Assembly (NCBI GenBank): GCA_963786955.1
Contig: CAWBAT010000005.1
Location: 224,001-288,000, forward strand
Direction: 5' to 3'
DNA: 64,000 nt
Source of the DNA: an uncultured Acidimicrobiia bacterium
GTDB taxonomy: Bacteria; Acidobacteriota; Terriglobia; Versatilivoradales; Versatilivoraceae
The translations under genes and the position numbers were made by a program. Shown here piece by piece: positions 18,845 to 41,417 of this stretch. Each line of letters opens with the position of its first letter. Position 1 is the first letter of the stretch. Under the pieces are notes generated by a model. That model was not told the origin of the DNA. It saw nothing but the letters and a program-made list of their open reading frames with translations, and searched no databases.

Positions 18845-18865
18845 TAATGAGATCTTAGGTCCAGT

Positions 18866-19105
18866 GTCCAAAGTCGAAGGGCGGAACTAAAGGTCCAAGG
18901 TCTAAGGTCGAAAGTCTACCAATTGCCGAATGCCGATTGCGGATTGCCGAGTGGTGATTGAAAAGCAAATTCTCGCAGAGAACGCGAAGGACACCAAGAA
19001 AACGATCAAGGTCAAAAACTTAAGACAAAAGCAAATATTGCCGCAAAAGAGCGCAAAGGGCGGGCCCACCCCCCTGAAGTCCCCCCTTGTGTAAAGGGGG
19101 ACAGA
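18866..19105. repeat. Modular A-rich repeat array A1
   Basis: AAGGTCC/AAGGTCT/AAGGTCG and TGCCGAA/TGCCGAT heptamers, CGCAAAAGAGCGCAAAGGG, then hairpin GTCCCCCCTTGTGTAAAGGGGGAC. Confidence 0.85.
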
Positions 19106-19181
19106 AGGTGCCAAAGATCCCGCCAATACTGGGCTTCGGTTCGCCCCGCTTCAATGACGATTTCCTGGGAGGCACCGTTCA

Positions 19182-19772
19182 TCATCGAAGCTTTACCTCA
19201 TAATAGAAGAACTTCACCACTTCGTTCTGAAACTCTATAAGGCCTTTTTCATTTTGCCACCAGTTGGACGAAACAGAGGAGACAGGTTTGGTCGACGTGA
19301 CCAGAACCTCGACTTGGTTTGCGCCTTTGTTCAGCATCTTTTCAAATAACCAGTTGACTCGCCGTGTATGGAAAGGCTCTGTTGGAACGATCAACCGATG
19401 GGCCTTGTTGGAATGCACCCAATCTTGAAGCGCTAACCCCTCTTCATAGGTACTGGAAACCTCACTCCCTATAAAAACCAGAGCTTCTTCCGGTACGCCT
19501 CGGTTGATGAGGACTTCTTTCAGAAGAGATGTTTCAGGCTGGGTTATTCCGATTTCTTCAGTATTCCTGTGCTCGATGTTCATTACCACAACCTTGGGCG
19601 CAAGACCTTGTTTGTAAAGCTCCGCGGCTAGAAAAGGCCTCGTCTGCAAGCCGCCTCCGAGGACGACAATGGCATCCGCTTTGGACAAAGGTTCGTCGAC
19701 GATCCAGAGCCGGGCAAGGCCGGTGAGCAGCGGGGCGCGGAAAAGGAAGATACCGACGAGAACCAGGGTCAA
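19182..19772 (-). CDS. YdcF/DUF218-family protein
   Basis: ADAIVVLGGG, STYEE, TEPFHTRR and NEVVKFFYY motifs; start codon uncertain. Confidence 0.82.
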   Translation of the reverse strand: MTLVLVGIFLFRAPLLTGLARLWIVDEPLSKADAIVVLGGGLQTRPFLAAELYKQGLAPKVVVMNIEHRNTEEIGITQPETSLLKEVLINRGVPEEALVFIGSEVSSTYEEGLALQDWVHSNKAHRLIVPTEPFHTRRVNWLFEKMLNKGANQVEVLVTSTKPVSSVSSNWWQNEKGLIEFQNEVVKFFYYEVKLR

Positions 19773-19830
19773 GAGGAGGAGACGGAGGAGCCATTTGGTA
19801 ATTATGGATTGGCGAATAAAGATAAGCGAG

Positions 19831-20050
19831 GGTCCAGAGTCTAAGGTCTACCGAATGCCGAATGGCGATTGCCGATTGAAAAGTCAATTCTCGCAAAGAG
19901 CGCTAAGGACGCAAAGACAAACACGAATCTAAACCACGGGGAAAGACAAGACAGCCGCGGTCTCGCAGGAGCTCGCCCCTCCAGAAAGCAGAAGGCAGCG
20001 GGCAGAAAGCAAAGGCAAAAGTAAAAACTCTAAGGAAATAGGTAAAGCAA
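19831..20050. repeat. Modular A-rich repeat array A2
   Basis: Same modules as A1 plus AACCACGGGGAA and AGAAAGC/AGAAGGC heptamers. Confidence 0.85.
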
Positions 20051-20063
20051 ATAGGGGAGTTAT

Positions 20064-21080
20064 TTAGGTCTTGGAACCGACCGCTTGCGTCATGTGGCGT
20101 TGGCTCGCCGCGCTTGCGCTCTGTGAAAGAGAGTTCTTCGAATTGCAGTACCACTCGTAAGTTGCGCGAATCCCGTCTTCGAGCGAAATTTGTGACTGCC
20201 ATCCCAAATTCTGCATGCGAGTGATATCCAACAATTTCCTGGGAGTCCCATCGGGTTTCGACGAGTCGAAGCGCAATTCGCAATCTGTCCCAACAATCCG
20301 GCGTATCAGCAAGGCAAGTTCTCCAATCTCTAAATCCGTACCACTTCCCACATTGAGGATCCCATCCGGGGCTGCCTTGCGTATGGTATCCATCGGTAGC
20401 TGGAGTATGAAGACACAGGCAGCGGCTAAGTCATCTACGTGCAGAAACTCCCGGCGAGGCCTCCCACTCCCCCAAATTTCGACAGCCGCATTTCCATTGC
20501 GCCCGGCCTCGTAGAATTTGCGAATCATTGCCGGCAGAACATGAGAAGTTGTCAAATCGAAGTTGTCGCCCGGACCATACAGGTTGGTCGGCATCAGGCA
20601 AATGGAGTTGAACCCGTGCTGGATCTGATAAGCCTGGCACATTTTGATTCCCACAATCTTTGCTATCGCATAGGCTTCATTTGTTGGTTCCAATGGCCCA
20701 GTGAGGAGGTACTCTTCCTTGAGAGGTTGTGGCGCCAGCTTTGGGTAAATGCACGAAGAGCCCATGAAGATAAACTTTTTGGCACCATTCCGCCTAGCAG
20801 CATCGATCACATTGGTTTCAATAAGAATATTCTCCCGTATGAAATCGGCCGGGTAGCTGCTGTTGGCGAGGATTCCACCAACTCTAGCAGCCGCTAAAAT
20901 GACACAGTCCGGTCGTTCTTCCTCGAAGAAACGATTTACTCTCTCCTGGACAGTCAGGTCCAGCTCGGCTTGAGTTCGGAGCACGATGTTGGCATAGCCT
21001 TCGACTTGTAGCCTGCGCAGGATGGCTGCCCCCACCAATCCACGATGCCCCGCCAGAAAAATTTTCCCCTCTTTATGCAT
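20064..21080 (-). CDS. fcl: GDP-L-fucose synthase
   Basis: [41 protein letters not shown] and KPDGTPRK motifs; start at MHKEG (21080). Confidence 0.95.
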
Positions 21081-22118
21081 GGGCAAAACCTCGCTTCTCC
21101 GAAGCGAACCCCGCATCATTCAAATGCCGCTCTTGTTCAGCTAGTTTCAGATCATGGTCTACCATCATCCGGACCACCTCTTTAAATTTGATCCGTGGAC
21201 GCCAGTTGAGAACTCTTTCAGCTCTAGATGAATCACCCTCTAGAATGTCCACTTCCGTGGGGCGATAATAGCGGGGATCGGTTTTCACGAATGGCCTCCA
21301 ATCCATCCCCAGGCATTCCCCCACTTCGTCCAGGTATTCCCTCACCGAACTGGATTCCCCCGTGGCCACGACATAGTCGTCGGGCTCTGGTTGCTGCAGT
21401 GTCAGCCACATGGCTTCGACAAAGTCGCCCGCAAAACCCCAGTCCCTGCGTGCTTCGAGGTTCCCCAAATAGAATACGTCCTGCACCCCCATCTTAATTC
21501 GGCACAAGGCTCGCGTAATCTTGCGCGTCACAAAGGTTTCCCCCCGACGGGGTGATTCATGGTTGAAAAGGATGCCATTGCAGTTAAACATGCAATAGGC
21601 CTCCCGGTAATTGACGACGTACCAGTGGGCCGCTACTTTGCTAACTGCATAGGGACTGCGCGGACGAAAGGGCGTTTGTTCGTTTTGCGGCGGCGGGGAT
21701 GAACCAAACATCTCGGAAGTGCCCGCCTGGTAGTAACGAACGATTTTGCCCGTTGTGGCCACATGATCCCGTATTGCCTCTAACAGTCGCAGTGTCCCCG
21801 TAGCCCCGATATCGGCACTGTATTCGGCCTGCTCAAAAGAGATGAGTACATGGGATTGGCCCCGAGGTTGTAGACCTCGTCCGGTTGGACTTTTTCCAAA
21901 ATGCGTCTCAGGCCTGTACCATCGGCCAAATCACCGTAGTGCAGGTAGAGACGCGTCTCGGGATCGTGAGAATCGCGATAAAGATGATCAATTCGCGATG
22001 TATTGAATGAGGAAGATCGGCGAATGATGCCGTGAACTTCGCAGCCTTTCTCAAGTAGGAATTCCGTTAAGTAAGAACCGTCCTGACCGGTAGTACCCGT
22101 GATTAGTGCATTTCACAT
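21073..22118 (-). pseudogene. gmd: GDP-mannose 4,6-dehydratase, disrupted
   Basis: [14 protein letters not shown]...RRSSSFNT...YNLG(A)QSHV...SEMFG...SPYAVSK...[18 protein letters not shown]. Codon 2 is TGA (22113-22115) and there is a one-base deletion near 21859. Confidence 0.85.
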
Positions 22119-22127
22119 TGGGTTTTT

Positions 22128-22435
22128 GTCAAAGTCTAAGGTCGAAGGGTCTAAAGCTTAAAGCAAAAGGGAAAAGACTTAGAGCAAATATAGCCGCGAA
22201 TGAACGCGAATTGACGCCGATTAAGACATCCCCCGGCGCCTCCTTTAGTAAGGGGGAAGTAATTGCCGAGTCGGGATTTAAAAGCTAACTAACGCAAAGG
22301 ACGCAAAGAGCGCCAAGAAAAGAACTAAGGTCTAAAACCAAAAGCAAAAGCGAAAAGCGAATGTTGCCGCAAAAAAGCGCAAGAAAAAAATTGAAAAGCG
22401 AAGGCCGGGACTCTGAACTACGGACTCCGAACTCT
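22128..22435. repeat. Modular A-rich repeat array A3
   Basis: AAAGTCTAAGGTCGAAGG, GCCGCGAATGAACGCGAAT, CGCAAAGGACGCAAAG, GACATCCCCCGGCGCC and GGACTCT/GGACTCC heptamers. Confidence 0.85.
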
Positions 22436-22439
22436 CATT

Positions 22440-24866
22440 TTAGGCACCTTTGGCTTTGGCTTTGGGCTTGTCCTTTTCGCTGGGCCGGTAATAGTAGTAG
22501 TTGTCGTAGTGGCCCTGAGTTCTCTTAGGATTCCAGTGATTCAAAATTGTGCCCAATACAGGCGTATTGTCAGCCCGGAAACACTCTACAGCCGTCAGCG
22601 CCGCGTCCCGAGAGGTGAAGTTGGAGAAGAAGACCAGAATCACGCCGTCCGACAACCGGCCCAGGATGCGCGCATCCGAGAGGTTCAACATGGGCGGAGT
22701 GTCAATGAGAACAGTGTCGAACTCTCTTCGAAAACGTTTCAGAAGCTGGGGCAGACGCGTTGAAAACAACAGGTTGGCGATTTTGGTAGTCTCAGACCCG
22801 CAAGACAAAAGATGAAGGTTGGGAATGAGAGTTTTTGTCACGACCGATTCGATCTTGTACTCGTCCACCGGCGTTTCATCCAGCAACAGATCGGTCAAGC
22901 CCCGTTTGTTCTCCAAGCCGAAGATATGGTGCAGGCGCGGCTTGCGGAGATCGCCGTCAATGAGCAACACCCGCCGGTTGATCTCGGCCAGCGCAATACC
23001 CAGGTTGGTGGTCACCGTTGTCTTACCAGCCATCGGGTTGCAACTCGACACCACAATGACCCGAGGGCTGTTGCCGTTCTCCGAAGAGAAGAGAATGGAG
23101 GCCAGTGTCGTTCGGAATGCCTCCGCCACCAGAGACGGATTTTTTTGCCAGGTGACCAGTTCGACACATTCCGAATCTTTTCCATCCCCTAGCGATCGCC
23201 CCCGGGCGTAGCCGACCGGCAGGCTCTCCCGGACTGGTCTGTCCAACGCCGCCTGGCCATCGCCGGAATCGAGCTGCAGCGTGACTAACGGCGGCCGATG
23301 TCCGTACATCCTGGTCTTTCGATCGGCCCCCGCCATCGGAATCGCTCCAAACTCACGCACATTGAGGTAAAGCGGCGCGTCGCCGGGATCGTGGAGACTA
23401 TGATCCGCCCGGTCTCGAACGGCAGCAAAGACAATACCGAGAAAGACTCCCGCTAGAAGGCCAAGAGTGGTACTCCGCACGAAGTTTGGCTTGTAAGGGG
23501 ACGTGGGAATCCTGGCAGGATCCACGACACGCATGTTGCTCATTCGCATGGCCGCCGCGATCCCGTATTCCTTGACCTTCTGCAGGAGACTTTCGTACAG
23601 GCTGCGGTTGGTGTCTACCTCGCGCTTCAGGATGTTGTATTGAACGGCCTTGGCTGCCTGTTCGGAAACGAGCTTGGACTGCTCGGCATAGGCTTCAGAC
23701 AGCAGATTCTCGTTACGCCGTGAAGTTTCGTATTCGTTTCGAATGCGCTGGGAAACATTGTTGCGTTCCTTTGACAGGGTGGTTTCCAGCTCCTTGATCT
23801 GGGCCTCGATTACTTTTACTTTGTAGTGCCCCGGAGCAAACAAAGCCGTGAGTTCAGCACGCTGCCGGCGCAGATCGGTGAGCTTTTCCTGATAAGTCTT
23901 CAGAGAAGCATCATCCAGCACCTGGGGCAGAGAATCTACCGGGTTGGAAACGGTAATTCCAAACTGCGATTGTTTGGTCATGCGTTCTGCCTGGGCAGCG
24001 GAAAGCGCTTCCTGCAACTGCCGTAGCTTTTCTTCATCCAAGCTGTTCTTTTCCCCGGTGAACATCAGCCCAGTGGCATAAGCGTACGATTGAAGCTGGT
24101 CTTCAGATTTTTGCAACTTGATCTTGATGTCTTCGAGTTGGCGGGTGAGCCAATCGCCGGTACGCTGGGTACTCTTCCAACGAACTTCAATGCTTTGTTC
24201 AATGTATTCGTTGGCCAGAGTGTCAACAAACTTGGCAGCAATTTTAGGGTCGGTGGAGTCCGCTGAAATCGCAACGATGCGGGTCTGCGGTAACGCGCGA
24301 ACACTGAGGCTACCGCTGGCCATCGCTGCAGCCTCTTCTTGGCTGGAGATAGGTTTTGGTCCGGGCAGACGTAGTGCTTTGCGCCAAACGGAAATCCGGT
24401 CTTGTTGCTCCAAAACCTCCGGATGCTTTTCCAAATCCAGTTTGGCCAGAACCCGCGAAATGAGGGTTTCGCTTTGAATGATTTTGATTTGGGTGGGCAG
24501 GTTGGTTTCGGCAGAGTAGTAGTCGGTCGAGGCCCCCGTATCCACCTCCCGGTTGTTTAAGAGGATCTCTGTCTGAGGTTGGATCTCTAGAGTAGTTTGC
24601 GAGCGGTAAACTCTGGTTTGAGGCAATGCCACCAGCAGCCCGATAATAGCCCCCATAAACGCGATCAAGAGAATCGTCCATTGGTGACGACGGAGCAGTT
24701 TCCAATATTCCAGCACAAGGCTGGGCGATTCATCCTGGTGAGCCCTCCGCCGATTGGAAAAGTATGGGCGCTCAGCCTGTTGAACGGTTGAGTCTTCGTG
24801 TTTGGAGAGTGCAGTAAAAGGTTCACCCGTCAGAAGATAGCGGGGTTCGTTTATTTTAGGTTCCAT
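22440..24866 (-). CDS. wzc: Polysaccharide co-polymerase / tyrosine autokinase (Wzc/GumC)
   Basis: Two TM segments, a coiled coil, AEAFRT, Walker A (AGKTT), LLIDGDLRKP, IDTPP and a C-terminal Tyr cluster HYDNYYYY. Confidence 0.95.
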   Translation of the reverse strand: MEPKINEPRYLLTGEPFTALSKHEDSTVQQAERPYFSNRRRAHQDESPSLVLEYWKLLRRHQWTILLIAFMGAIIGLLVALPQTRVYRSQTTLEIQPQTEILLNNREVDTGASTDYYSAETNLPTQIKIIQSETLISRVLAKLDLEKHPEVLEQQDRISVWRKALRLPGPKPISSQEEAAAMASGSLSVRALPQTRIVAISADSTDPKIAAKFVDTLANEYIEQSIEVRWKSTQRTGDWLTRQLEDIKIKLQKSEDQLQSYAYATGLMFTGEKNSLDEEKLRQLQEALSAAQAERMTKQSQFGITVSNPVDSLPQVLDDASLKTYQEKLTDLRRQRAELTALFAPGHYKVKVIEAQIKELETTLSKERNNVSQRIRNEYETSRRNENLLSEAYAEQSKLVSEQAAKAVQYNILKREVDTNRSLYESLLQKVKEYGIAAAMRMSNMRVVDPARIPTSPYKPNFVRSTTLGLLAGVFLGIVFAAVRDRADHSLHDPGDAPLYLNVREFGAIPMAGADRKTRMYGHRPPLVTLQLDSGDGQAALDRPVRESLPVGYARGRSLGDGKDSECVELVTWQKNPSLVAEAFRTTLASILFSSENGNSPRVIVVSSCNPMAGKTTVTTNLGIALAEINRRVLLIDGDLRKPRLHHIFGLENKRGLTDLLLDETPVDEYKIESVVTKTLIPNLHLLSCGSETTKIANLLFSTRLPQLLKRFRREFDTVLIDTPPMLNLSDARILGRLSDGVILVFFSNFTSRDAALTAVECFRADNTPVLGTILNHWNPKRTQGHYDNYYYYRPSEKDKPKAKAKGA

Positions 24867-24869
24867 GAG

Positions 24870-25742
24870 AGGTCAGAGTTTTAGAGTTCGGAGTGAAAAT
24901 AAAAGGTCCAAGGTCTAAAGCTTAAAGCAAAAGCTAAAAGCAAATGTTGCCGCAAAGAAGCGCAAAGGGCGCAAAGATTTGCAACAAACTGGACCACGGG
25001 GAACACGGGGAAAGTCAAGAAAGCCGCAGATGGACGCGAATAAACGCGAATCAAAACTAGATCACAGGTTAAAGGTTCAAGGGCGAAGGGCAAAAAGTCC
25101 GGAGTATGGAGTCCGGAGTCAAAATAAAAGTTCAAAGGTCGAAAGTCAAAAGCCTAAGGCAAAAGCGAAAAGCAAATATCGCCGCAAAAGAACGCAAAGA
25201 CACAAAGAAAAAGGGCCGCGAATTGACGCGAATAAACGCGGATAAAGCCAGAAGGAAAAAAGTAAAAGCAAATGTTGCCGCAAAGGAGCGCAAAGGGCGC
25301 AAAGATTAACAACAATGGACCACGGGGAACACGGGGAAAGTCAAGACAGCCGCGAATGGACGCGAATAAACGCGAATCAAAACTAGATCACAGGTTAAAG
25401 GTTGAGGTTAAAAGTCCAAGGTCAAAGGTCTGACAATTGTCGAATGGCGATTGCCGAGTGTCGATCTAAAAGCTAACTAACGCAAAGGACGCAAAAAAAA
25501 GAGTCAAAGGTCGAAGGTCTAAGGTCGAAAGTCAAAAGTCACAAATGAAAAATGGAAAATGATGAATGACAAATGAAAAACCTCCACCCCCCTGAAGTCC
25601 CCCCATGTGTAAAAAGAGAAGGCAGAAAGCAGAAGGCAGGTACGAGTGAAAAGATCTCAAAGCAGGACATCCCCCCGGCGCCCCCTGTAAGAATGTCCAA
25701 GGTCAAAGGTCGAAAGTCCAAAGTCAAAGGAAAAAAGTCTAT
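24870..25742. repeat. Modular A-rich repeat array A4 (largest, ~870 bp)
   Basis: Two near-identical ~140-bp blocks (~24935-25078 and ~25265-25405) plus AAATGAA/AAATGGA/GAATGAC and AGAAGGC heptamer runs. Confidence 0.9.
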
Positions 25743-25752
25743 AACTGCTGGG

Positions 25753-26745
25753 TCAATAGTGGGCAATGATGGCAATGCTGGTCGCCATTGAGGTAGCACC
25801 CATAAGGGACTGCATGAAACTCGGTCTCGTCCTGCCGGGAATGTAGAGGATGTCGCCAGTCTGAAGCGTGACATCACTGGCGCCTCCAGTCAACATCACC
25901 TTCAAATCCACCGGCACCTCTTCCCGGCTGTCGGCTCCGGGAACGGGACGCAGAATTCTAGCTTTATCAGGTATTGCCGTTTTCTCCAGGCCTTCAGCCA
26001 TCGACAGAGCTTGCAGGGCGGTGATGGTTTTCTGTTCGCTAAGAATGATTCCGCCGGGTTTGCGTACGTCGCCAATCACATAGACCAGTTCCCCCTTGGG
26101 TACCGAGATGACGTCAAAAGGGCAGATGAGGATGTTCTCTTCCGGCTTGGTAGCCTCCATGATGGAGTTGAGATTGACGGTGGCAACGCTATACCGGCCG
26201 CTGTCTTCATTGACTGCATTGGGAAGTGGAATTTTGCCGAACTCCCGCCTGCGCGTAATTTTCACACTGTACCCGGCTTCCGGCTTGACTCCGTCGGCCA
26301 GCGAAAGCACTTCAAACAAGGTCTTGCGTCCCTCCAATTGCACCACGCCCGGTTTATTCACCCATCCGATAATAGAAACGGGTTGGCTGCGGTAATCCGT
26401 AATGTTGACAGACACCTGAGGTTCGTTGAGGGTATCCTTCAGCCGTGTGGCAATTTCCGCCTCAAGTTGTTCCGCCGTCATGCCGGATACTTTGATTTGC
26501 CCGATCATGGGGAGTTTGATATTTCCGGTATTTCCGATACGGACCGGTTTGTCGCTGATCTCTTCGAGATGCAGGACGCGGAGACTGATGGTATCCCCCG
26601 GCCCCAAGACGTATTCAGAGTCGCTCTGGGCGGGCTGGCCCGGGACAGATTGGGGAGCAGTGGCGGGGTTGTCTTGTGCGAAGAGAGCGGAAGAGAGGAG
26701 GAGAAAGAAGGCCACAAATAAGCGCGAGAGTTTGAGAGGTTTCAT
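25753..26745 (-). CDS. wza: Polysaccharide export protein (Wza/Poly_export with SLBB domains)
   Basis: Signal peptide, YVLGPGDTI, GNIKLPMIG, VYVIGDVRKPG and LQTGDILYIP motifs. Confidence 0.92.
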   Translation of the reverse strand: MKPLKLSRLFVAFFLLLSSALFAQDNPATAPQSVPGQPAQSDSEYVLGPGDTISLRVLHLEEISDKPVRIGNTGNIKLPMIGQIKVSGMTAEQLEAEIATRLKDTLNEPQVSVNITDYRSQPVSIIGWVNKPGVVQLEGRKTLFEVLSLADGVKPEAGYSVKITRRREFGKIPLPNAVNEDSGRYSVATVNLNSIMEATKPEENILICPFDVISVPKGELVYVIGDVRKPGGIILSEQKTITALQALSMAEGLEKTAIPDKARILRPVPGADSREEVPVDLKVMLTGGASDVTLQTGDILYIPGRTRPSFMQSLMGATSMATSIAIIAHY

Positions 26746-26759
26746 GATGGTTTATCGGT

Positions 26760-27160
26760 CTTAGGGTGAAGGGAAAAGTTCGGAGTCCGGAGTTCAATAG
26801 GCAGAGAACAAAAGGTAGAGTGTATAGAGATAAGGGTCAAGGGCGAATTAAGAGGTCGAAGGTCGAAAGTCAAAAGCTTAAAGCAAAAAACTAAAAGCAT
26901 ATATTGCCGCAAGAAAACGCAAAGAACACAAAGGGAGCAAAGATAAACAAAAAAATAAACCACGGGAACACAGGGAAGAACAATATAGCCGCGAATGAAC
27001 GCGGATTAACACGATTCGAGGGCGATTGGGACATCCCCCGGCGCGCCCTTCAGAAAGGGGGAATAGTTTGTAGAAGGGCGAAAGGAAAAGTTCAGAGTTC
27101 GGAGTCCGTAGTCTAAAACTAAAGGAAAAACTAAAGCAAAAAGGGCAAGTACAAGAAGCA
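26760..27160. repeat. Modular A-rich repeat array A5
   Basis: GTTCGGAGTCCGGAG, AGGTCGAAGGTCGAAAGTC, TTGCCGCAAGAAAACGCAAAG, AACCACGGGAACACAGGG and GCCGCGAATGAACGCGG modules. Confidence 0.85.
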
Positions 27161-27175
27161 TTCGGCGGTCGGCGA

Positions 27176-27715
27176 TTAGCGGTGAGCGGCAACTAATCTC
27201 ATGGGCTGTTCAATCGGGCTGACCCAGTCCTGGTCAACTTCTACAGCCACGGAACGTTGCAGCAGAGTGACTGAAACAACTAATCGGGAAGGTTTCTTAA
27301 CGGAGGTCAGAATCCCTTCCACTCCTTCCAGAGATCCCCGCTCGATACGCACCCGCTGCCCAACTTTCAAATACGGCCAAGGTTCGGCTTGAAGACCCGA
27401 ATTCACGATGGATCGGAGCGCCGTAATTTCGCTCTCATCAACGGGAAGCGGAACCTTGCCAGCCCCAACAACCTGCAAAACGCCCGGCGTTACCAGAATC
27501 GGAAGCCGATAGTTCAGGTCAAAGCGGCAAAACACATACCCGGGGAACAGTGGCAACATGAGTTCTTTCATGCGGTCCGACCAGCGGCGCCTGATGCTGT
27601 AGAGAGGCAACAATTCTTCGTAGCCTTTGTCTTGCAATGCGGCAGCTACAATTTTTTCGTGCTGACTTCTAACAACGAGCGCAAACCATTGAAGTTCGTT
27701 GTTGGGTGACAGCAT
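27176..27715 (-). CDS. Specialised NusG paralogue (UpxY/RfaH/LoaP-type transcription antiterminator)
   Basis: NGN domain (WFALVVRSQHEK, PLFPGYVF) and KOW motif (VGQRVRIERGSLEGVEG); sits at the head of the polysaccharide operon. Confidence 0.92.
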   Translation of the reverse strand: MLSPNNELQWFALVVRSQHEKIVAAALQDKGYEELLPLYSIRRRWSDRMKELMLPLFPGYVFCRFDLNYRLPILVTPGVLQVVGAGKVPLPVDESEITALRSIVNSGLQAEPWPYLKVGQRVRIERGSLEGVEGILTSVKKPSRLVVSVTLLQRSVAVEVDQDWVSPIEQPMRLVAAHR

Positions 27716-27744
27716 GGTTTGTCCTCCGTTTCATACACACAGCC

Positions 27745-27975
27745 GACGGCCGGGGTCAACGACCCTAGGTACAACAATGGCGTCGCGGGAGCGGGAGTGT
27801 TGAAGCGTGCGCCGGGGGACAGCGGTCCCACGCGCCAGTTCCACCTGAATCTAACATCGCCACCCACCCCTGGAGCCTGAAGGCTCCGCCCCTCCGGAGG
27901 GGAATTCAGTCCGTCGAGAGGTCGGCCAGGGGTCGCGGGAGCTAACCGGGGTCAACGACCCCGGCTACAACAAAA
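27745..27975. repeat. Cluster of REP-like palindromes between pilZ and the antiterminator gene
   Basis: CCGGGGTCAACGACCCCGGCTACAAC occurs twice. Segments are shared with ~33315-33357 (GGGGGA.AGCGGTCCCACGC...TTCCACCT) and ~34225-34271 (CCACCCACCCCT...CCCCTCCGGAGGGGAAT). Confidence 0.7.
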
Positions 27976-28028
27976 GCGTCGCCATTAATTAATAAAGCCC
28001 ACGGCGTCGTCCGCCAGCCAAATTTATA

Positions 28029-28358
28029 TCAGAGGAAGCGGTGACTTTTAAATGCCACTGCCAGCCCCTGCTTTCCATCAGGCTTTGGCTCGACTCGTAC
28101 CACGATGCCTTGGGCCGATACGCGTGCCGCCAACTTTTTGCCATTAAAGGGGCTTATAAAATGGACAATCAATCTTAGCTGGGCGCCATTCGCAACCTTC
28201 TGCTGTAAAGCCAGGTAGAGGCCGCTGGCGCTGAGATTCTCGAGCTGGATCTCGGCCTCGATTGACTGACCGCTCGAATCCTTGCCCATGACTTTGACTG
28301 GGAAGGCTTCGCGGATGCGAGGCTTACCTCGCCGCTCTGGTCCGGCGTACTCGATCAA
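28029..28358 (-). CDS. PilZ-domain protein (c-di-GMP receptor-like)
   Basis: ERRGKPR (RxxxR) and NLSASG (D/NxSxxG) motifs. Confidence 0.85.
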   Translation of the reverse strand: MIEYAGPERRGKPRIREAFPVKVMGKDSSGQSIEAEIQLENLSASGLYLALQQKVANGAQLRLIVHFISPFNGKKLAARVSAQGIVVRVEPKPDGKQGLAVAFKSHRFL

Positions 28359-28398
28359 AAAAGCCCCTTAGGAAATTGGAGTTCTTTTACCATCAAGA

Positions 28399-28410
28399 CA
28401 AGCTACCGCA
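28399..28410 (-). promoter_or_regulatory. ops-like pause element
   Basis: Minus strand reads TGCGGTAGCTTG, one mismatch from the E. coli ops consensus GGCGGTAGnnTG, about 40 nt upstream of the first operon gene. Confidence 0.55.
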
Positions 28411-28423
28411 CAAATTGTCCCAT

Positions 28424-28538: not shown

Positions 28539-29618
28539 CTAGTGTAGTGCGTCTAACGCTTCTTTACATTTGATGACTTTGGCCAGTATTTGGTCAGCTG
28601 TTGCTGTCCAAACGAAAACCTGAGGTTTTTCGTTATGCTTCCGCAAGTAGTCTTCGATGACGGCTACCAAATCAGGAACACTGGCAAAAGAACCGCGGCG
28701 AATGCGTTTCTCCGTGAGATTGCGAAACCAGCGTTCTACCAGATTCAGCCAAGAGCTCGAGGTCGGAGTAAAGTGCAAATGAAACCTGGGGTGGCGTCGA
28801 AGCCAGGACACTACGCGGGGATGTTTGTGTGTTCCGTAATTGTCGACGATCAGATGCAGGTTCAGCTCATCGGGAGTCTGGCAGTCGATCCGCTTCAAAA
28901 ACCGAATGAACTCCTGGTGGCGATGCCTCGGCATACAATCGCCGATCACGCGGCCGTCCAGCAGGCTCAGGGCGGCATACAGCGTCGTGGTGCCGTGGCG
29001 TTTGTAATCGTGAGTCAGGGTGCCACAACGCCCCTTCTTCAAAGGCAACCCCGGCTGAGTTCGATCCAGGGCTTGAATCTGCGATTTCTCGTCGACGCAC
29101 AGCACCAGCGACTTATCGGGAGGATTCAGGTACAAGCCCACAATGTCACGCAGTTTCTCGATAAACCGTTTGTCTCGGCTGAGCTTAAAGGTCTTCGTCA
29201 GGTGGGGCTTCAGATTATGTTGTTTCCAGACCCGCCGGATGGTGGCTTCACTAAGCCCCTGAGCCGCTGCCATCGTGCGGGTGCTCCAGTGCGTCGCATT
29301 CGGCGGTTTGCTATGCAACGTTGCTTCTATGACGGCTCGAATCTTTGGGTCAGGAATTTTCGGAAAGCGTCCGGGGCGCGGCGCATCCTTCTCCAGACCT
29401 TCCAGCCGAAGCGCCAGAAACCGCTGGCGCCAGAGTTGTACCGTAGGGCGAGATACTCGCAGCGCCTGCGCGATAGCCTGACTCTGCATACCCTCAGCCG
29501 CCATCTGAATGATCTGCGCCCGCTGAACGACTCGCAGAGGCATGCTTCGACTCCGTGCCCAGGTTTCCAAAATAGAGTGTTCTTCGGTCGAAAGGAAAAT
29601 CATCGGGGCTATTCTCAT
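28539..29618 (-). CDS. IS630-family DDE transposase
   Basis: HTH with PRPGR and HWSTRTMA; catalytic VDEK, VDNYGTH and SSWLNLVERWF; intact 359 aa. Confidence 0.95.
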   Translation of the reverse strand: MRIAPMIFLSTEEHSILETWARSRSMPLRVVQRAQIIQMAAEGMQSQAIAQALRVSRPTVQLWRQRFLALRLEGLEKDAPRPGRFPKIPDPKIRAVIEATLHSKPPNATHWSTRTMAAAQGLSEATIRRVWKQHNLKPHLTKTFKLSRDKRFIEKLRDIVGLYLNPPDKSLVLCVDEKSQIQALDRTQPGLPLKKGRCGTLTHDYKRHGTTTLYAALSLLDGRVIGDCMPRHRHQEFIRFLKRIDCQTPDELNLHLIVDNYGTHKHPRVVSWLRRHPRFHLHFTPTSSSWLNLVERWFRNLTEKRIRRGSFASVPDLVAVIEDYLRKHNEKPQVFVWTATADQILAKVIKCKEALDALH

Positions 29619-30810: not shown

Positions 30811-31480
30811 GAGCCACGTTAAGCGCTTTGTGCGAGACGTGGACTTTTCTAACAGCGCATTTCACCGCAAAGAACGCAAAGGTCACAAAGATAAACAACA
30901 ATAAACCACGGGGAACACGGGGAAAGCTACGATAGCCTCAAATGGACGCAAATGAACGCGGATCAAAACCAGATCACAGATTAAAGGTTGAGGTTAAAAG
31001 TCCAAGGTCTAAGGTCAAAGGTCAGAAAGTCTAAAGCTTAAAGCGAAAGCTAAAAGCAAATATTGCCGCAAAGGAGCGCAAAGGACGCAAAGATATACAA
31101 CAAATTGAACCACGGGGAACACGGGGAAAGCTACGATAGCCGCAAATGGACGCAAATAAACGCGGATCAAAACCAGATCACAGATTAAAGGTTGAGGTTA
31201 GAAGTCCAAGGTCTAAGGTCAAAGGTCGAAAAGTCTAAAGCTTAAAGCGAAAGCTAAAAGCAAATGTTGCCGCAAAGGAGCGCAAAGGACGCAAAGATAA
31301 ACAACAAATTGAACCACGGGGAACACAGGGAAAGCTACGATAGCCGCAAATGGACGCAAATAAACGCGGATCAAAACCAGATCACAGGTTAAAGGGCGAA
31401 GTTAAATGTCCAAAGTCTAAGGTCAAAAGCCCAAAGTCAAGGGACAAGAGTTCGGAGTCCTGAGTCAGGAGCACGGAGTC
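30811..31480. repeat. Modular repeat array A6: ~200-bp unit, about 2.8 tandem copies
   Basis: Units start at 30865, 31066 and 31270 (CCGCAAAG...) and are nearly identical. Confidence 0.92.
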
Positions 31481-31579
31481 ATAATTTGATAATGCCAATT
31501 GAAGCTATTATTTTTGCTTCTGCTGACTGCCTACTGCCTACCGGACTCCGGACTCACTTGGACTCCGAAACTTCGAACT

Positions 31580-33196
31580 TTAAACCTTCAGGTTGCATTT
31601 CTTGACTTCGTCGGCGATGAACGACGCCGTTCGGACTGCGAGCGCCATAATCGTCAGTGTCGGATTTTTTTCAGGATAGGTTGTAAAGGCGCTCCCACCG
31701 ACAACAAACAGATTCTTCACTTCACGAGCCTGGCAATAGGAATTTAAAACTGAAGTTCGTTTGTCTTTGCCCATGCGCACGGTGCCTGCTTCGTGGCTTC
31801 CAAATCCTCCAGGCTCAGACATGGTATTTACAATATGCCTAGCCTTCGCTTCAGTCAGAATTTCCTGGGCCTTGGCTACAATATCTTTCCAAAGTGCGAT
31901 GTCATTTTCACAGAAACGAAAGTGCAATACGGGAATCGGAATCCCATACGCGTCCAAACGAGTGCGATCGACTGTAACCCGATTCTCCGGCCGGGCCAGC
32001 GCTTTTCCCCACCCTCCCATCTGCACGAAGCCTGGCTGCAACTCTCTCACTTCCCTTTTGAAAGACTCCCCAAAGCCCTTGAGGGTCCTGGCTTGATAAG
32101 GAAACATGAAGCCTGCGTAGTTCAGTTGGTAATGGTATCCACCGACGTAATTCTTCTTTTTCTTTTCAAGTTGGTTAAACCGGGGGATATAGGTGTGATC
32201 GGTAGCGCCGTCGTTGTTGACTGACGGTGTCCCGATCAATTTTTCCAGATACCCATTGATCCCCCCCGCGACATTGCCATGAAGATAGCGCCCCACCATA
32301 TCGTTTGAATTGGCCAGCCCATTTGGAAACTGCGGGGAGCGGGAGTTCAGAAGCAATCGGGCGGATTCCGGTGCGCCACAACACACCGCAAAGATCGACG
32401 CTCGAATTTGTTCTTCTTTCTTCGTGACATTGTCAATCACCGAGACGCTCTTGATTTTGCCCTCACCGTCCACAAGCAGTTCCCGAGCGATCTTGTTTTC
32501 CAGCAGAGTAAAGTTGCCGGTCTTCAGCGCCTTTGGAAACATCGCTACCGGCACGCTAAAGATGGCCCCCACATCGCATCCCCGCATGCAGCGTCCACAA
32601 TAGTGGCAGGCTGGACGGCCGTCGTATGGCACGGTGAGAACCGCTTTGCGAGTCGGGATCATTCGAATTCCCATTCGCGTACACGCACGTTCGACAATTT
32701 CTTCGCTGCAACGGGGTTTTAGGGGCGGGAGGAATACCCCGTCCGGAACGATCTCTAAATTCTCCCGTGAACCAGTGACTCCAATCATTTTTTCCACATG
32801 GGAATAACACGGTGCCAATTCCTGGTAGCTGAGTGGCCAGTCCTCTTCAACGCCTTCCAAGCTATATTCGCGGAAATCTCGCTCGGCAAAACGCAAACAG
32901 ACCGCATTCCAGTGAATACTCCGGCCACCCACTGCACGAATGCGATCAACAAGAATATTGTCACTATCTTCATACCGAATGGCTTCCGTCACTTCTTTGG
33001 GGTAGGCAGGAGGAGGAGATCCAGGACGCCGGGTTCCCCGAAAGGGAAGCTCGTAAGGCCAGGCGTGATATTGAAAATCTTCGGGCTGCATGGTGCGTCC
33101 CGCTTCGACGAGTGCCACCTTAGCCCCAGACTCTGCAAGTTCCTTTGACAGGACCCCGCCTGCAGGTCCTGAACCGATGATGCAGACATCAAACAT
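31580..33196 (-). CDS. GMC-family flavoprotein oxidoreductase (large subunit)
   Basis: IIGSGPAGG, GGRSIHW, the Fe-S motif CHYCGRCMRGC, HEAGTVRMG and NPTLTIMAL. Confidence 0.93.
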   Translation of the reverse strand: MFDVCIIGSGPAGGVLSKELAESGAKVALVEAGRTMQPEDFQYHAWPYELPFRGTRRPGSPPPAYPKEVTEAIRYEDSDNILVDRIRAVGGRSIHWNAVCLRFAERDFREYSLEGVEEDWPLSYQELAPCYSHVEKMIGVTGSRENLEIVPDGVFLPPLKPRCSEEIVERACTRMGIRMIPTRKAVLTVPYDGRPACHYCGRCMRGCDVGAIFSVPVAMFPKALKTGNFTLLENKIARELLVDGEGKIKSVSVIDNVTKKEEQIRASIFAVCCGAPESARLLLNSRSPQFPNGLANSNDMVGRYLHGNVAGGINGYLEKLIGTPSVNNDGATDHTYIPRFNQLEKKKKNYVGGYHYQLNYAGFMFPYQARTLKGFGESFKREVRELQPGFVQMGGWGKALARPENRVTVDRTRLDAYGIPIPVLHFRFCENDIALWKDIVAKAQEILTEAKARHIVNTMSEPGGFGSHEAGTVRMGKDKRTSVLNSYCQAREVKNLFVVGGSAFTTYPEKNPTLTIMALAVRTASFIADEVKKCNLKV

Positions 33197-33413
33197 CCGA
33201 TAACCTCCAGATTTCTCAAAGACTCACGCGCTGCCAGCGTAGAAGGTAGAGCGGGCGCTCCTGCGCACGCTCAATGAAAGCGCGTGGGACTACCGTCCCA
33301 CTGCGCACGCTCAAACGCGCGCGTGGGGGAAAGCGGTCCCACGCTCGCGTTCCACCTAAACGGTCAGACCGTCAAAAACACGTGACCGCATCTATGCAAC
33401 AGAGCATTTACTA

Positions 33414-34040: not shown

Positions 34041-34067
34041 GACCTTTGTCTCCTATAGGCGTAGTCT

Positions 34068-34129
34068 GAGGTTGTAGCCGGCCTCGCTGAGGCCGGCACC
34101 TATCCGGGGCCAGCGGCCCCGGCTACAAC
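34068..34129. repeat. GTAG-type REP doublet
   Basis: GTTGTAGCCGGCCTCGCTGAGGCCGG...CCGGGGCCAGCGGCCCCGGCTACAAC; a second copy lies at 43114-43175. Confidence 0.8.
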
Positions 34130-34312
34130 AATAGATTACTTCAATATAACAAAGTACATAGTCGCCTGTCGTTACCAATCAGGCGTCGTGCGCCGTGCGG
34201 CGTACTTCCACCCTCCACTTAATACCACCCACCCCTATAGCCTAAAGGCTCCCTCCCCTCCGGAGGGGAATAGAAAGGGTCATCCATGATTAGTAAGACA
34301 CCTTCTTACTGA

Positions 34313-34342
34313 TTGGCAGGGAATGGTCAGATCGTATAAAAT
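34313..34342 (+). promoter_or_regulatory. Possible sigma70 promoter of the desaturase gene
   Basis: TTGGCA followed after 16-18 nt by TATAAA/TAAAAT, about 60 bp upstream of ATG 34405. Confidence 0.3.
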
Positions 34343-34404
34343 AAGAGAAGTACTAGTTAGGTTTTTTATCCACTAACACTGCTTCACGAGAAACTCTCCA
34401 CCGC

Positions 34405-35427: not shown

Positions 35428-35849
35428 GAATCATCTCCTTCGCAGGTTTGAGTCTATTAAGCGTCGCAGAGCTTCGCCTTCCAATAAACCTGTTGTCACA
35501 AAGCGGGAGTATTAGAGAGTCAATTGGCGACAGGAAAGGATCCGCTCAGGATTCCCTGTTGCTAGAAACGGCGTTAGCTCTCTACTGGCCCACGCGGAGA
35601 ATTTAATTTCGGCCGGCCTTAAAGACAGCTCGGAGTTGGGTGGAATCCCCTGCAAAGTAGAATTAGCCTGCCAATTGGTTGGGGTTGAAGTCTGGTGACG
35701 TGGGATCGGCGGCCACCCGTTTCAGTATCGAGGGACCCGTCTCGGGAACCATTTCCATATTCTGGCTGAGGAGTTCACTAAAACCCAAAGTGTAGATTCA
35801 AATCTTGGTGGGTCTCGAGGTGTCCCCTCCGAGCAAGGGAGTTGTTACA

Positions 35850-38258: not shown

Positions 38259-38423
38259 TTCTCCCACGCGCGATTTGTCGTTGAAAGGGGTCAGCGTTGA
38301 AGGGAATAAGTTGAAGAGGGCAGAATCGACAGTAGACAATAGAGCGGTGGCTGCCTGCTGGACGAGTCGTTCTATTTTCCTGTCCCAGTAACTAAGCGTC
38401 GCAGAGCTCCGCCCTCCAGACGC

Positions 38424-40919
38424 CTATTTCTCTACGACGACTTCCAATTGAGCATGCCGGTCAGGTACTTTGATCCAAACGATTTTCTCCTCCGCGTCGT
38501 AGGCAGCCCCTTCCGAAACATCCTTTAATGCAACGGACGAAGAGCGAATTTCCAAGGTTCGGTTTTCTGCCTTCACTAAGTGAGGAACAGATCTTTGCCC
38601 GTGGATTTTGAAGACCAGTGCGCGTGCTGCCGGACTGTAGCCGCCGGTAATCGGTAAGACGTTAAGGGTCAGTTTGCTTACCTGGTCAGAAACACTGATT
38701 CGCTCAAGTAGAAATTTCCCTTTTTCAAAGTCAAAACTAATCCCGTCGTCCTCATAATAGTCGCGGGATGAGTTACCTCCTGGAAAGATCTCATAGGTCA
38801 ATGGATTGATGGGCGCCTGGTCGACGTATTGAACGACTTGTCGTGTTGGGACGACCGCACCGCTCCGAACAAATATCGGAATATGATCTAAAGGCGCTTC
38901 CACCGTAATCTGGACCGGCCCTGAGTAAAGCTTGTCAGACCAGTGATCGTACCATTCACCCTTGGGTAAATAGACTTTTCGCTGCACCTCGCCTTCAATG
39001 ACCACGGGGGCCACCAGGAGATCTTCCCCGAATAGGAATTCGTAGTTTTGGCCAGCTGGGGTCATATCCATCGCAGTCGCATCATCCGGATAATCCAACA
39101 GCAGGGGTCTCATAATGGGAAGGCCCGTCTGGGTCGCCTGGTAAAAAGAGTTGTAAAGGTAAGGGAGTAATCGATAGCGAAGTTCAATCGTCCGACGATT
39201 GATTTCCTCGTACTTCAGACCAAATGACCAAGGATCCAGTGTGCGCTTGGGATCGTAGCTGTGGGTCCACATGAACGGGTGGAAGACCCCGGCCTCGAGC
39301 CAACGGGTGTAAAGTTCGGCCGTCGGATAGCCCGCAAACCCGCCGATATCAGAACCTGTAAAAGGCATCCCCGAAAGTCCCATACTCATGACGACGCGCA
39401 GGCTGGCCCGCAGGCATTCCCAGGTCGAAAGGTTATCGCCCGTCCACTGGGCGGCATAGCGTTGTCCTCCTGCATAGGTGGCACGGGTAATCACAAAAGG
39501 CCTCTCCCCGGGCCGGAATCGCAGGAAACCTTCACGGGTCGCGGCAGACATCAACATCCCGTAAATATTATGATTCTTGGCATAAGGACTGTGCAAATCG
39601 TGATCCTGGAAAAGGATATTGGGATCCAGTGAACCCGGGATCCATCCTTTCTCCAGAGGAATCTGATCGATGGTGGGTTCATTCATGTCGGTCAGGATGC
39701 CGGCGATCCCGTCTTTGACATCGTTCTCCATAAGTGAGGCCCACCAGGAGCGCGTCTTTTCGGCAGTGAAATCCGGGAACACTGAATTCCCCGGCCAAAT
39801 AATGCCAATATAGAGGTTCCCGTCTTTTTTTCTGAGGAAGTGGTTACCCGGTAGACCATCCTTATAGACCCAGTAATTCTCGTCCGCTTTCAGGCCGGGA
39901 TCGACAATCTCGATAGAACGGAAACCCTGCTGCCGCAGGTCCGTCATGAGCTGCCGTGGGTTGGGGAATTTCGATTTGTCCCAGGTAAAGCTGAGATTGC
40001 TGTCCATGTGGCTGTTATCAAAGAAGACGGCATCACACGGGATATGCCTATAACGGAAGTTGGTCGTGACGAACCGCATGGTGCTTTCGGGGGCATAGAA
40101 TGCACTGCTCTGCACATAGCCAATGGACCAAAGTGGGGGAAGAAAGGTCCGCCCCACCAATTGCGTAAATCGGCCCAATACAGCCTTCGGGTCCGGGCCG
40201 GCAAAGAAGTAATAATTCATCTCGCCGCCTTCCGCCCCAAAGGAGTAGTACGATTCAGACTCCGCTCCCAAATCAAAAGACGACCGATAGGTATTATCAA
40301 AAAAGATCCCATAGGCTTTACCGGCCCGAACTCCGATGAAAAAAGGAACGGTCTGATACATCGGATCAGTGAGCGCATCGTAGCCGGCTGGGTCGGTATT
40401 CCACATGACGTAGGAATGACCGCGTTTGTCCAGCGGCCCGGCCTTCTCTCCGAGTCCGTAATAGTGCTCATCCGGCGGCAGCCATTTCCAGCAGCGAACG
40501 CGTTCCCCTTCCCAGGCCATCTCTCGGGCATCTTCTGAGATCAGCCTGCCTCCCAAGTCGTAAAAGGCCAATTGGAAGGGCGAAAGCCGAACTCGCAACT
40601 CAAGAGCAGTGGTCCTGATTACCTTCATCTGGCTGTCACCAGAGAATTGAATCGGAAATTGCGGCCAGTCCGTCTTCACCACGGCCCAGGAGTAATCCGG
40701 CCCAATCGTTGCCCCTGGAATCATCCTGACCCGAATTAGGTCAGGCGCCAGCAAGGTGATGACAACATTGGCCTCCGGACTGTTGAAGCGGATTTGGTTC
40801 CCCATAGAGACGCTCGGAACCATGGTTCCAACCCCTCGCCACTCTGCCCTCACGGAACCGGCCAGAAAAAGCAAAACAAACAACAAACTCAATTTCTTAA
40901 TGACAGAGAGCCTTGGCAT
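38424..40919 (-). CDS. Glycoside hydrolase family 31 (secreted)
   Basis: Signal peptide, YYGLGE, DMNEP nucleophile motif, WTGDN, GSDIGGF, GLPIMRPL and YYEDDG. ATG 40919 follows GGGAGGG. Confidence 0.93.
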   Translation of the reverse strand: MPRLSVIKKLSLLFVLLFLAGSVRAEWRGVGTMVPSVSMGNQIRFNSPEANVVITLLAPDLIRVRMIPGATIGPDYSWAVVKTDWPQFPIQFSGDSQMKVIRTTALELRVRLSPFQLAFYDLGGRLISEDAREMAWEGERVRCWKWLPPDEHYYGLGEKAGPLDKRGHSYVMWNTDPAGYDALTDPMYQTVPFFIGVRAGKAYGIFFDNTYRSSFDLGAESESYYSFGAEGGEMNYYFFAGPDPKAVLGRFTQLVGRTFLPPLWSIGYVQSSAFYAPESTMRFVTTNFRYRHIPCDAVFFDNSHMDSNLSFTWDKSKFPNPRQLMTDLRQQGFRSIEIVDPGLKADENYWVYKDGLPGNHFLRKKDGNLYIGIIWPGNSVFPDFTAEKTRSWWASLMENDVKDGIAGILTDMNEPTIDQIPLEKGWIPGSLDPNILFQDHDLHSPYAKNHNIYGMLMSAATREGFLRFRPGERPFVITRATYAGGQRYAAQWTGDNLSTWECLRASLRVVMSMGLSGMPFTGSDIGGFAGYPTAELYTRWLEAGVFHPFMWTHSYDPKRTLDPWSFGLKYEEINRRTIELRYRLLPYLYNSFYQATQTGLPIMRPLLLDYPDDATAMDMTPAGQNYEFLFGEDLLVAPVVIEGEVQRKVYLPKGEWYDHWSDKLYSGPVQITVEAPLDHIPIFVRSGAVVPTRQVVQYVDQAPINPLTYEIFPGGNSSRDYYEDDGISFDFEKGKFLLERISVSDQVSKLTLNVLPITGGYSPAARALVFKIHGQRSVPHLVKAENRTLEIRSSSVALKDVSEGAAYDAEEKIVWIKVPDRHAQLEVVVEK

Positions 40920-41114
40920 CTTTCCCTCCCAGCTGTTTGTTGGTCTTCCAAACGAATGTCCGGAGAAGAAAACGAAAAGGTGTGGAATTGACAATCATCA
41001 CTCTTCGTGACTATCGTAGATATTGAAGGATGCAATCCTTATTCCAACCAATGCATCTGAGTAGGGACCGGCCGGGAGGCCTGTCCCTACCAACTAGGCG
41101 ACTTCCGCCTGCGT

Positions 41115-41417
41115 TAGGTCTTTGACCCTAGCCCTCTGCTCTTAGACCTCGCAGCTTTTTTCTTTGCGTTCTTTGCGCTTTTTTACGGCAATATTTGTTT
41201 GGCTTTTCCCTTAGACTTTGGACATTCATACAGGGGTTGCCGGGGGATGTCCCAATCAGCATCAATTCGCGTTTATTTGCGCCCATTTGCGGCTATCTTG
41301 GCTTTCCCTGTGTTCCCCGTGGTTTATTGTTGTTTATCTTTGCGCCCTTTGCGTTCTTTGCGGTGAAATACGCGGTTAGAAAAGCCCGCGTCTCGCAAAA
41401 AATGCTCAACGTGGCTC
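41115..41417. repeat. Modular repeat array A7 (opposite orientation)
   Basis: Reverse complement of the A1-A6 modules; ~41270-41417 is an inverted near-copy of ~30811-30960. Confidence 0.88.

Follow-up and report, generated by a model that had tools for sequence, protein, structure and literature searches.

What are the seven arrays of shuffled 7-, 9- and 10-base words that occupy intergenic gaps in a 64-kb stretch of the genome of an uncultured Acidimicrobiia bacterium from sediment, and where does their vocabulary come from? The whole stretch analysed, here called the window, is G000:C5:224001-288000, G000 being the source genome (5.65 Mb, 9 contigs); positions inside the window are counted from its first letter, and positions elsewhere are given with their contig. 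A first-pass annotation had taken the arrays for a dispersed, recombining element family with its own propagation mechanism. It had also mentioned that similar short-period repeats flank genes of two families in other bacteria, four-helix-bundle (PF05635, TIGR02436) and GxxExxY (PF13366, TIGR04256), and had suggested that the arrays could be empty or concatenated flanks of such cassettes. We find that the flanks of these genes in the same genome are built from the word classes of the arrays, and we propose that the arrays are probably gene-less, concatenated cassette arms, grown by duplication and recombination.

The coordinates and words given for the seven arrays in the first-pass annotation were all confirmed, both in the letters and with Tandem Repeats Finder (TRF), which returned 65 rows in the window, the majority of them within arrays. 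AAGGTCNAAGGTC has 11 window matches where 100 dinucleotide-preserving shuffles give an expectation of 0.01, and the decamer doublet CGCRAATNNACGCRRAT has 13 where 0.00 are expected. Two long linkers occur five times each on the plus strand and are nearly exclusive to the window arrays. The arrays have in common a compound block, which consists of an AAGGTC run, an AAAGC run, three copies of CGCAAAG, two of CACGGGGAA, three of CGCGAAT and a linker. Recent duplications are evident: a 204-bp higher-order unit is repeated 2.8 times at 30865-31427 in array 6 (93%; copies 93-100% alike), and blocks related to this unit are found again in arrays 3, 4, 5 and 7, where they are 85-93% identical between nearby gaps.

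Each array draws on the words in its own way. Array 1 (18866-19105, plus strand, as are arrays 2 to 6) lies in the gap between the wzx and DUF218 genes and holds an AAGGTCN run, a TGCCGAW run, a CGCAAAG doublet and a hairpin module at about 19072. Array 2 (19831-20050), between the DUF218 and fcl genes, combines AAGGTC-type, CCGAATG and CGCAAAG-type words with one CACGGGGAA and an AGAAGGC run. In the gmd/wzc gap, array 3 (22128-22435) has AAGGTC words, an AAAGC linker, a CGCGAAT triplet, a hairpin module and a CGCAAAG doublet, and its terminus at 22400-22435 consists of reverse GGAGTC-type arms. Array 4 (24870-25742), in the wzc/wza gap, carries the composite block, with CACGGGGAAx2 in it, two to three times, together with TGCCGA, AAATGA and AAGGCAG runs and two hairpin modules. 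Array 5 (26760-27160), between wza and the UpxY-type gene, is made up of GGAGTC-type arms, one degenerate composite block and a hairpin module. Array 6 (30811-31480), in the gap between a LuxR response regulator gene and a GMC oxidoreductase gene, is the site of the 204-bp composite unit, and array 7 (41115-41417, minus strand) is a single reverse-oriented composite block between a GH31 hydrolase gene and plus-strand open reading frames (ORFs). The hairpin modules inside the arrays are of two kinds, both small and with G/C stems: one is found at 19072 and 25590, and the other at about 22228, 25672 and 27033.

The strand asymmetry that had been claimed for the arrays stands in part. Words within an array are largely co-oriented, but GGAGTC-type arms in reverse orientation lie at 22400-22435 and 31517-31580, and array 7 as a whole reads as the reverse complement of the others. 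A two-armed GGAGTC/AGGCAG hairpin at 31440-31585 stands directly past the stop codon of the GMC oxidoreductase gene (fold z = -4.2), and a 19-nt perfect inverted pair, with arms at 22417-22435 and 27094-27112, encloses wzc, array 4, wza and most of array 5. Folding of the window arrays gave z-scores from +0.04 to -3.35, and 6 of 10 two-armed spacers elsewhere folded at z -5.5 to -11.8; all of these scores were calculated against simple shuffles that do not preserve dinucleotides. The arrays contain no credible ORF, as had been stated, all six ORFs that overlap them being without a Pfam family. A search of Rfam at E ≤ 1 placed no family inside any array; its one weak snoRNA-type match falls in the UpxY gene, and 17000-43000 is free of rRNA matches.

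The source genome itself holds the cassettes from which we propose the array vocabulary derives. Four-helix-bundle genes occur at eight loci (10 TIGR02436 matches) and GxxExxY genes give 20 TIGR04256 matches, about 13 of them full length; none lies in the window, where no match to either model was found at E ≤ 0.001, in keeping with the annotation. The four-helix-bundle protein has solved relatives (2GSC, 2RLD), and the GxxExxY protein has no solved relative by sequence. A heptamer run lies within 400 bp of all eight four-helix-bundle loci, and on both sides of five, against a background of 284 of 4910 crude genes with a run on any side and 15 with runs on both. Inverted-flank scores of at least 14 were obtained for seven of the eight loci and for 6 of 200 small background genes.

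Cassettes and arrays share a vocabulary. Every four-helix-bundle gene has a heptamer word of its own, and these words are those of the window: AAGGTCN forms the arms at C8:452449 and C3:167530, GGAGTC/GAGTTC those at C6:465972, AAATGAN those at C8:340623 and TGCCGAW those at C6:737248. The GxxExxY genes are flanked by 9/10-mer triplets in place of heptamers, with CGCGAATNNA arms at C7:137301, CGCAAAG arms at C6:986091 and CACGGGG arms at C5:600536. Seven word classes of the window therefore serve as cassette arms in the same genome; the exceptions are AAGGCAG and AAAGCNN, which are seen here only in gene-less hairpins. The link to TIGR02436 and TIGR04256 genes that had been mentioned for other bacteria thus holds in this genome, the flanks of both using the word classes of the arrays. 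The window arrays have the tandem 7-mers or 9/10-mer triplets of a cassette arm. They have no PF05635 or PF13366 ORF between arms and, save for the hairpin at 31440-31585 and the long-range pair 22417/27094, no inverted stem-forming pair.

Mapping of the modules across the genome and its relatives found the words beyond the window and the partner genes enriched beside them. Doublets are far more frequent in the genome than in the reversed genome (CGCAAAG, 24 vs 1; CGCGAAT, 37 vs 1; CACGGGG, 14 vs 0), and the same is true of several heptamer words (AAATGA, 51 vs 1; AAGGCAG, 20 vs 0; AAGGTC, 153 vs 47). GGAGTC (39 vs 38) and AAAGC (86 vs 62) show no enrichment in this comparison with the loose patterns used. 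Period 7 is the dominant intergenic tandem period, with 152 TRF rows (period 6 has 12 and period 8 has 35), intergenic DNA making up 18% of the genome. These period-7 repeats are present in 113 intergenic regions, the majority without purine skew, which fits forward and reverse arms sharing one gap. Among 300 heptamer runs, 52 have a reverse-complement partner within 2.5 kb (4 and 6 in two controls), and 53 have a direct partner. Composite arrays with at least three kinds of word were found by a genome-wide scan at C5:161-265 kb only, about 105 kb of one contig. One piece of their architecture recurs outside it: the compound arm of two CACGGGGAA followed by three CGCGRAT is also present at C5:1104588-1104790, where it forms one side of a nested hairpin without a gene. 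At C4:772-775 kb a mega-array of 2.4 kb contains a PIN-toxin pair and adjoins unrelated genes.

Metagenomes show the anatomy of the cassette and the excess of its gene-less form more fully. The cross-phylum survey of GxxExxY loci used a three-sequence alignment as query and covered one clade; a ten-sequence alignment was set aside as too diverse. At least 532 relatives were confirmed among at least 599 matched stretches. The best 80 of these are 65-87% identical in protein sequence to the query and carry metagenome-assembled genome (MAG) labels of Planctomycetota, Verrucomicrobiota, Chloroflexota, Desulfobacterota, Bacteroidaceae and others, a Terriglobia MAG being the best cross-genome match among those listed. 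Full flanks were available for 57 of the 80 loci, the 23 with cut flanks being excluded, and 44 of the 57 have inverted flanks scoring at least 12, compared with 3 of 57 in a reversed control. Arms in this clade are three 9-mers, for example TCTCACGGAGGCACAAAGGCACGGAG. The upstream arm extends into the ATG, and the complementary arm begins 1-6 nt past the stop codon in most of the 18 tightest loci. Arm sequence varies between cassettes and complementarity is kept within each; sequence similarity between loci ends at the outer edge of the arms.

When the arm rather than the gene is followed, the gene is mostly absent. At least 120 metagenome stretches contain the exact CACGGGGAA doublet, and 80 of these loci divide into 52 empty hairpins, with a reverse arm within 250 nt, 3 with a GxxExxY gene or fragment, and 25 one-armed loci, some of which are cut by contig ends or have degenerate partners. 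The compound arm of two CACGGGGAA and three CGCGRAT was found by pattern at 3 of 23 metagenome loci and by eye at L171 and L186. The 24-nt linker had no match in the metagenome scan. Public runs yielded short contigs only, 90-99% identical and with many alternative joints, which are possibly the arrays of other organisms, and one RNA-library run gave partial matches; we base no conclusion about transcription, variation in copy number or habitat on these data.

Related genomes show which parts of an array persist. AAGGTCN doublets number 24 and 12 in two genomes of the same genus (control, 4 and 6) and are not enriched in two family-level relatives (5 vs 5 and 2 vs 7 in the control); of 201 genomes sampled from the phylum, 4 (G000 among them) have a triple run of this word. 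Doublets of the 9/10-mers were found in all five genomes tested, with none in the control. C5:199-224 kb of G000 is syntenic with C20:11.8-45 kb of the genus-mate G002 at 83-89% nucleotide identity, across polysaccharide genes on both sides (carbamoyltransferase, GT4, WecA-like transferase, asparagine synthase, ABC transporter and NTP_transf_5). The same gaps are filled with arrays in the two genomes. The array ends align, but inside them entire words and blocks have changed; one 96-nt block reaches 92.7% identity, with flanking genes at 84-89%. Two array gaps of G002 carry toxin-antitoxin cargo. In one pair HicA is accompanied by a UPF0150-like partner and in the other HigB by an HTH partner, and duplicated stretches of array stand on either side. 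For the window gaps a comparison of filled and empty orthologous sites was tried and abandoned, the operon having no close counterpart (best Wzc match, 49%). In G001 the 81% orthologue of the GMC oxidoreductase has no array, and another gene lies downstream of it.

We propose the following account of how such arrays could arise. The basic unit would be a hairpin with arms of tandem words, with a tiny gene in the loop of some copies and most copies having none. In the complete form, inverted arms bracket the gene and can pair as a stem; a four-helix-bundle gene has arms that are runs of a 7-base word, and a nuclease-like GxxExxY gene has arms of three 9/10-base words. In the majority of copies in nature the gene is absent, having been lost or never acquired. 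At least seven arm flavours would have gathered in the spaces between the genes of a large polysaccharide region, where nested or neighbouring elements would give compound arms, and the loss or duplication of one side would give one-sided stacks. Growth could then proceed by local tandem duplication, of which the 204-bp unit (x2.8) is an example, by unequal recombination and by copying between neighbouring gaps. Solo arms would on this account derive from two-armed elements, and spread would be by recombination or gene conversion, perhaps aided by cassette proteins that recognise their own arms. The arrays themselves may be tolerated spacer DNA, whose long common sequence would let small selfish genes such as toxin-antitoxin pairs recombine in. 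The data themselves show the common vocabulary, the build of the cassettes, the preponderance of gene-less copies, the retained occupancy of gaps with changing interiors, the young duplications and the cargo within arrays; the direction of descent, the mode of spread and any part played by the cassette proteins belong to the proposal.

How does this account bear on the first-pass annotation? Because cassette flanks and arrays have word classes in common, empty or concatenated flanks is the best reading of the arrays, and overall we regard the interpretation in the annotation as partly supported. The terms dispersed and recombining are supported, as arrays also occur at other places in the genome and in two genus-mates, and words turn over in orthologous gaps. 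We cannot follow the annotation in granting the arrays a propagation mechanism of their own, as no enzyme or insertion signature was identified.

Several observations weigh against the derivation of the arrays from cassette arms. The window arrays lack partner arms, no step from a two-armed element to a solo arm was directly observed, and co-oriented stacking is unexplained by simple hairpin decay. AAGGCAG and AAAGCNN have no gene-bearing cassette in this genome. The tie to GxxExxY genes is looser by two of our measures, with 1 of 18 matches near TRF-detected heptamer runs and 5 of 13 loci reaching an inverted-flank score of 14 by an ungapped measure. At the cassette edges in 18 loci we saw neither target-site duplication nor any other sign of insertion. 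Finally, the conservation of gap occupancy and array ends between G000 and G002, with a block that outdoes its neighbouring genes in identity, could reflect function rather than neutrality.

This last point leads to the strongest of the alternatives, that the arrays are functional parts of the operon, acting either as RNA-level spacers (in processing, in Rho loading countered by UpxY or in mRNA stability) or as protein sites 9-10 bp apart. Arrays occupy the intergenic gaps of a minus-strand polysaccharide operon that is headed by a gene for an UpxY-family (NusG-like) antiterminator (27176-27715; NF033644, 102.9 bits against a cut-off of 100). Downstream of it follow a wza-type polysaccharide export gene (25753-26745), a wzc-type chain-length/tyrosine-kinase gene (22440-24866), a GDP-mannose 4,6-dehydratase gene, gmd (21073-22112; two reading frames with one frameshift, the N-terminal part in 21780-22112), an fcl-like NAD-dependent epimerase gene (20064-21119), a DUF218 gene (19182-19772) and a wzx-type flippase gene (17261-18871). 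That every gap of this UpxY-headed operon is array-filled would suit such a function, as would a sense strand that is 62-70% pyrimidine, with C over G and little structure, the perfect inverted pair that encloses wza and wzc, and the retention of occupancy and ends, and of one block at higher identity than the flanking genes, in the genus-mate. The pattern nevertheless fails to generalise. Arrays at C5:200-221 kb are sense to the genes and those of the window antisense, and skewed heptamer gaps genome-wide show no strand preference, with 4 purine-rich and 4 pyrimidine-rich gaps between plus-strand genes and 6 and 5 between minus-strand genes. Only one of the three UpxY-led loci of the genome has arrays, arrays in this vocabulary are absent from all eight wzc/wza homologue loci looked at elsewhere (two in a genus-mate, the rest in further genomes), array interiors are unconserved, and mega-arrays adjoin unrelated genes as well. 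We see no strand-specific role for the arrays in operon RNA, and they are not self-folding. An operon function therefore seems to us unlikely, although it is the least unlikely of the alternatives.

Three narrower versions of an operon link were rejected. Rho loading or another sense-strand RNA design was rejected as a general rule because the orientation of the arrays relative to the genes flips; a link to UpxY-led operons was rejected on the one locus in three, and a link to wza/wzc as such by the absence of arrays from all eight homologue loci.

It is also conceivable that the locus is a trap or decoy in which the arms of every resident cassette are catalogued in one orientation, its transcript or DNA pairing with or titrating the arm-containing 5' ends of the cassettes or their proteins and so silencing selfish genes. 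The composite arrays do hold at least seven flavours of resident cassette, co-oriented within an array, and the upstream arm of GxxExxY cassettes enters the start codon, often with GGAG, so that antisense arm RNA could block translation. By analogy with piRNA clusters, a defence-like, one-orientation arm catalogue of this kind might be read through by the antiterminated operon, its RNA or DNA sequestering cassette arms or arm-binding proteins. The orientation of the arrays differs, however, between the two halves of the region. Co-orientation would be the trivial result of tandem duplication, and the search for composite arrays took in this genome and stretches of two genus-mates only. We judge both the decoy and its defence-like elaboration to be improbable, and clearly more so than an operon function.

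The annotation had set the arrays apart from repetitive extragenic palindromic (REP) repeats and from CRISPR, and we agree: the words are direct and co-oriented, with no unique spacers and no constant repeat. The possibility that they are REP repeats or bacterial interspersed mosaic elements (BIMEs) moved by a REP-associated tyrosine transposase (RAYT) deserves mention, as the Y1 transposase family PF01797 is matched 21 times in the genome and BIMEs are likewise mosaics of repeat units with set linkers, according to PMC2817692. The units here are tandem direct words, however, rather than palindromes of 20-40 nt; they are co-oriented and non-alternating, and the arrays do not fold. No Y1 transposase match falls in C5:160-265 kb, and the one of the 21 PF01797 matches that was examined (C8:30908-31407, hit at C8:30963) is flanked by a different inverted repeat, TAACCGTTTTAACGG. 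We consider this origin very improbable. That the assembly of a long-read metagenome bin produced the arrays as artefacts is hardly credible, for although frameshifted genes such as gmd suggest some sequence errors, the same words and compound blocks occur in orthologous gaps of two other genomes of the genus, a contig from public run X2 (possibly the source sample) is identical over 26754-26904, and the CACGGGGAA arm is present in at least 120 metagenome stretches.

A number of further observations concern the locus and its surroundings. The gmd frameshift may be real or a sequencing error. Just upstream of the operon an IS630-family transposase gene (28539-29618, minus strand; NF033545, 275 bits) lies between a PilZ-domain ORF (28029-28358) and the LuxR response regulator gene. 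Across C5:203-252 kb, from the UpxY-type gene down to about 203.6 kb, nearly all genes have minus-strand orientation; the arrays of the upstream part run opposite to those of the downstream part, so that over distances of 20-45 kb the one set is complementary to the other. A 44-nt inverted pair, 77% complementary, spans 5.4 kb (27792-27835 / 33280-33323), and a 19-nt pair (89%) of the CCCCCGGCGC hairpin module flanks the UpxY-type gene (27034-27052 / 27801-27819). The small hairpin element CCCCCCTGAAGTCCCCCCTTGTGCAAGGGGGGAC has 19 dispersed copies in the genome, among them window positions 19072 and 25590, C6:1012545 and C8:39406, and is likewise present in arrays of the genus-mate.

Elsewhere in the genome, segment copies that are about 90% similar lie at C5:10500-12600 and C4:381100-383100; in these, GATGCGR-heptamer hairpins with conserved loops separate a membrane-protein gene from a four-helix-bundle gene (z down to -7.3). 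The Y1 (IS200/RAYT-like) gene at C8:30908-31407, with its inverted TAACCGTTTTAACGG, is a separate REP-like system. In G045, of the same phylum, the control pattern CTGGAAN x3 matched 51+71 times, and this genome seemingly has an abundant heptamer word of its own.

Runs of 7-base words between genes are known from several bacterial groups, and their origin is not agreed in the accessible parts of the literature. The present locus links a whole repeat vocabulary to two tiny-gene families that are very widespread and have no known function. Gene-less derivatives vastly exceed gene-bearing ones, much as miniature inverted-repeat transposable elements (MITEs) and REPINs exceed their parent elements. 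The orthologous gaps of two species, with remodelled arrays and inserted toxin-antitoxin genes, offer a natural comparison for the rates and modes of spread. If the cassette proteins do recognise their own arms, the cassettes would be a new type of minimal element, mobile or homing, and their proteins programmable readers of DNA or RNA words.

How do these elements compare with known systems? Descriptions in the curated entries for the two families presumably mention such repeats. Our literature search, which did not extend to subscription journals, found no work linking them to four-helix-bundle or GxxExxY families. A near relative of the gene-bearing form is the 23S rRNA intervening sequence (IVS). 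In Coxiella burnetii an IVS with an S23p ORF in helix 45 is described as a selfish element excised by RNase III (PMC4990558). The four-helix-bundle genes here share the Pfam family of that ORF, PF05635, '23S rRNA-intervening sequence protein', and likewise have inverted, stem-forming flanks. Unlike the IVS, however, the cassettes here lie between protein-coding genes and have stems of tandem 7-base words, and the window arrays have neither gene nor second arm and stand clear of any rRNA match (17000-43000).

The words themselves invite comparison with published intergenic heptamer repeats: GGGNATC in Xanthomonas and Nostoc (PMC4692102), TAACTGA in Beggiatoaceae (PMC4679880) and the heptanucleotide elements of Geobacter (PMC2700814). 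The accessible text of these reports describes short 7-base runs that are enriched in intergenic DNA, vary in copy number and fall into many families in each genome, their origin being unexplained; in all of this they resemble the repeats described here. The same text states no tie to four-helix-bundle or GxxExxY genes and no multi-word composite arrays, and the words here differ and are mostly genus-specific.

A further group, the short tandemly repeated repetitive (STRR) sequences, comprises the heptamer repeats of heterocystous cyanobacteria, which have named word sequences of their own. The repeats described here resemble them as intergenic, tandem heptanucleotide runs in many dispersed copies (152 rows in 113 regions), and differ from them in their words. 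CRISPR arrays are a poor match: there is no constant repeat of 24-48 nt with unique spacers, the word classes are many and short, and the 204-bp period is all repeat. MITEs fare no better, the composite blocks running head-to-tail without inverted ends and the edges of the 18 cassette loci being free of duplication.

A parallel in overall logic exists with REP/BIME/REPIN-RAYT systems (PMC2817692, PMC3116915, PMC3333891). Both combine a few gene-bearing copies within their own repeat, many gene-less intergenic hairpins and mosaic clusters with linkers; here, however, the associated genes are not Y1 transposases, the repeats are tandem words in place of single palindromes, and the window arrays are co-oriented and unfolded. 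Set beside all of these systems, what is new here is a class of gene-less, one-sided, multi-flavour composite arrays that are kept in orthologous polysaccharide gaps and carry toxin-antitoxin cargo.

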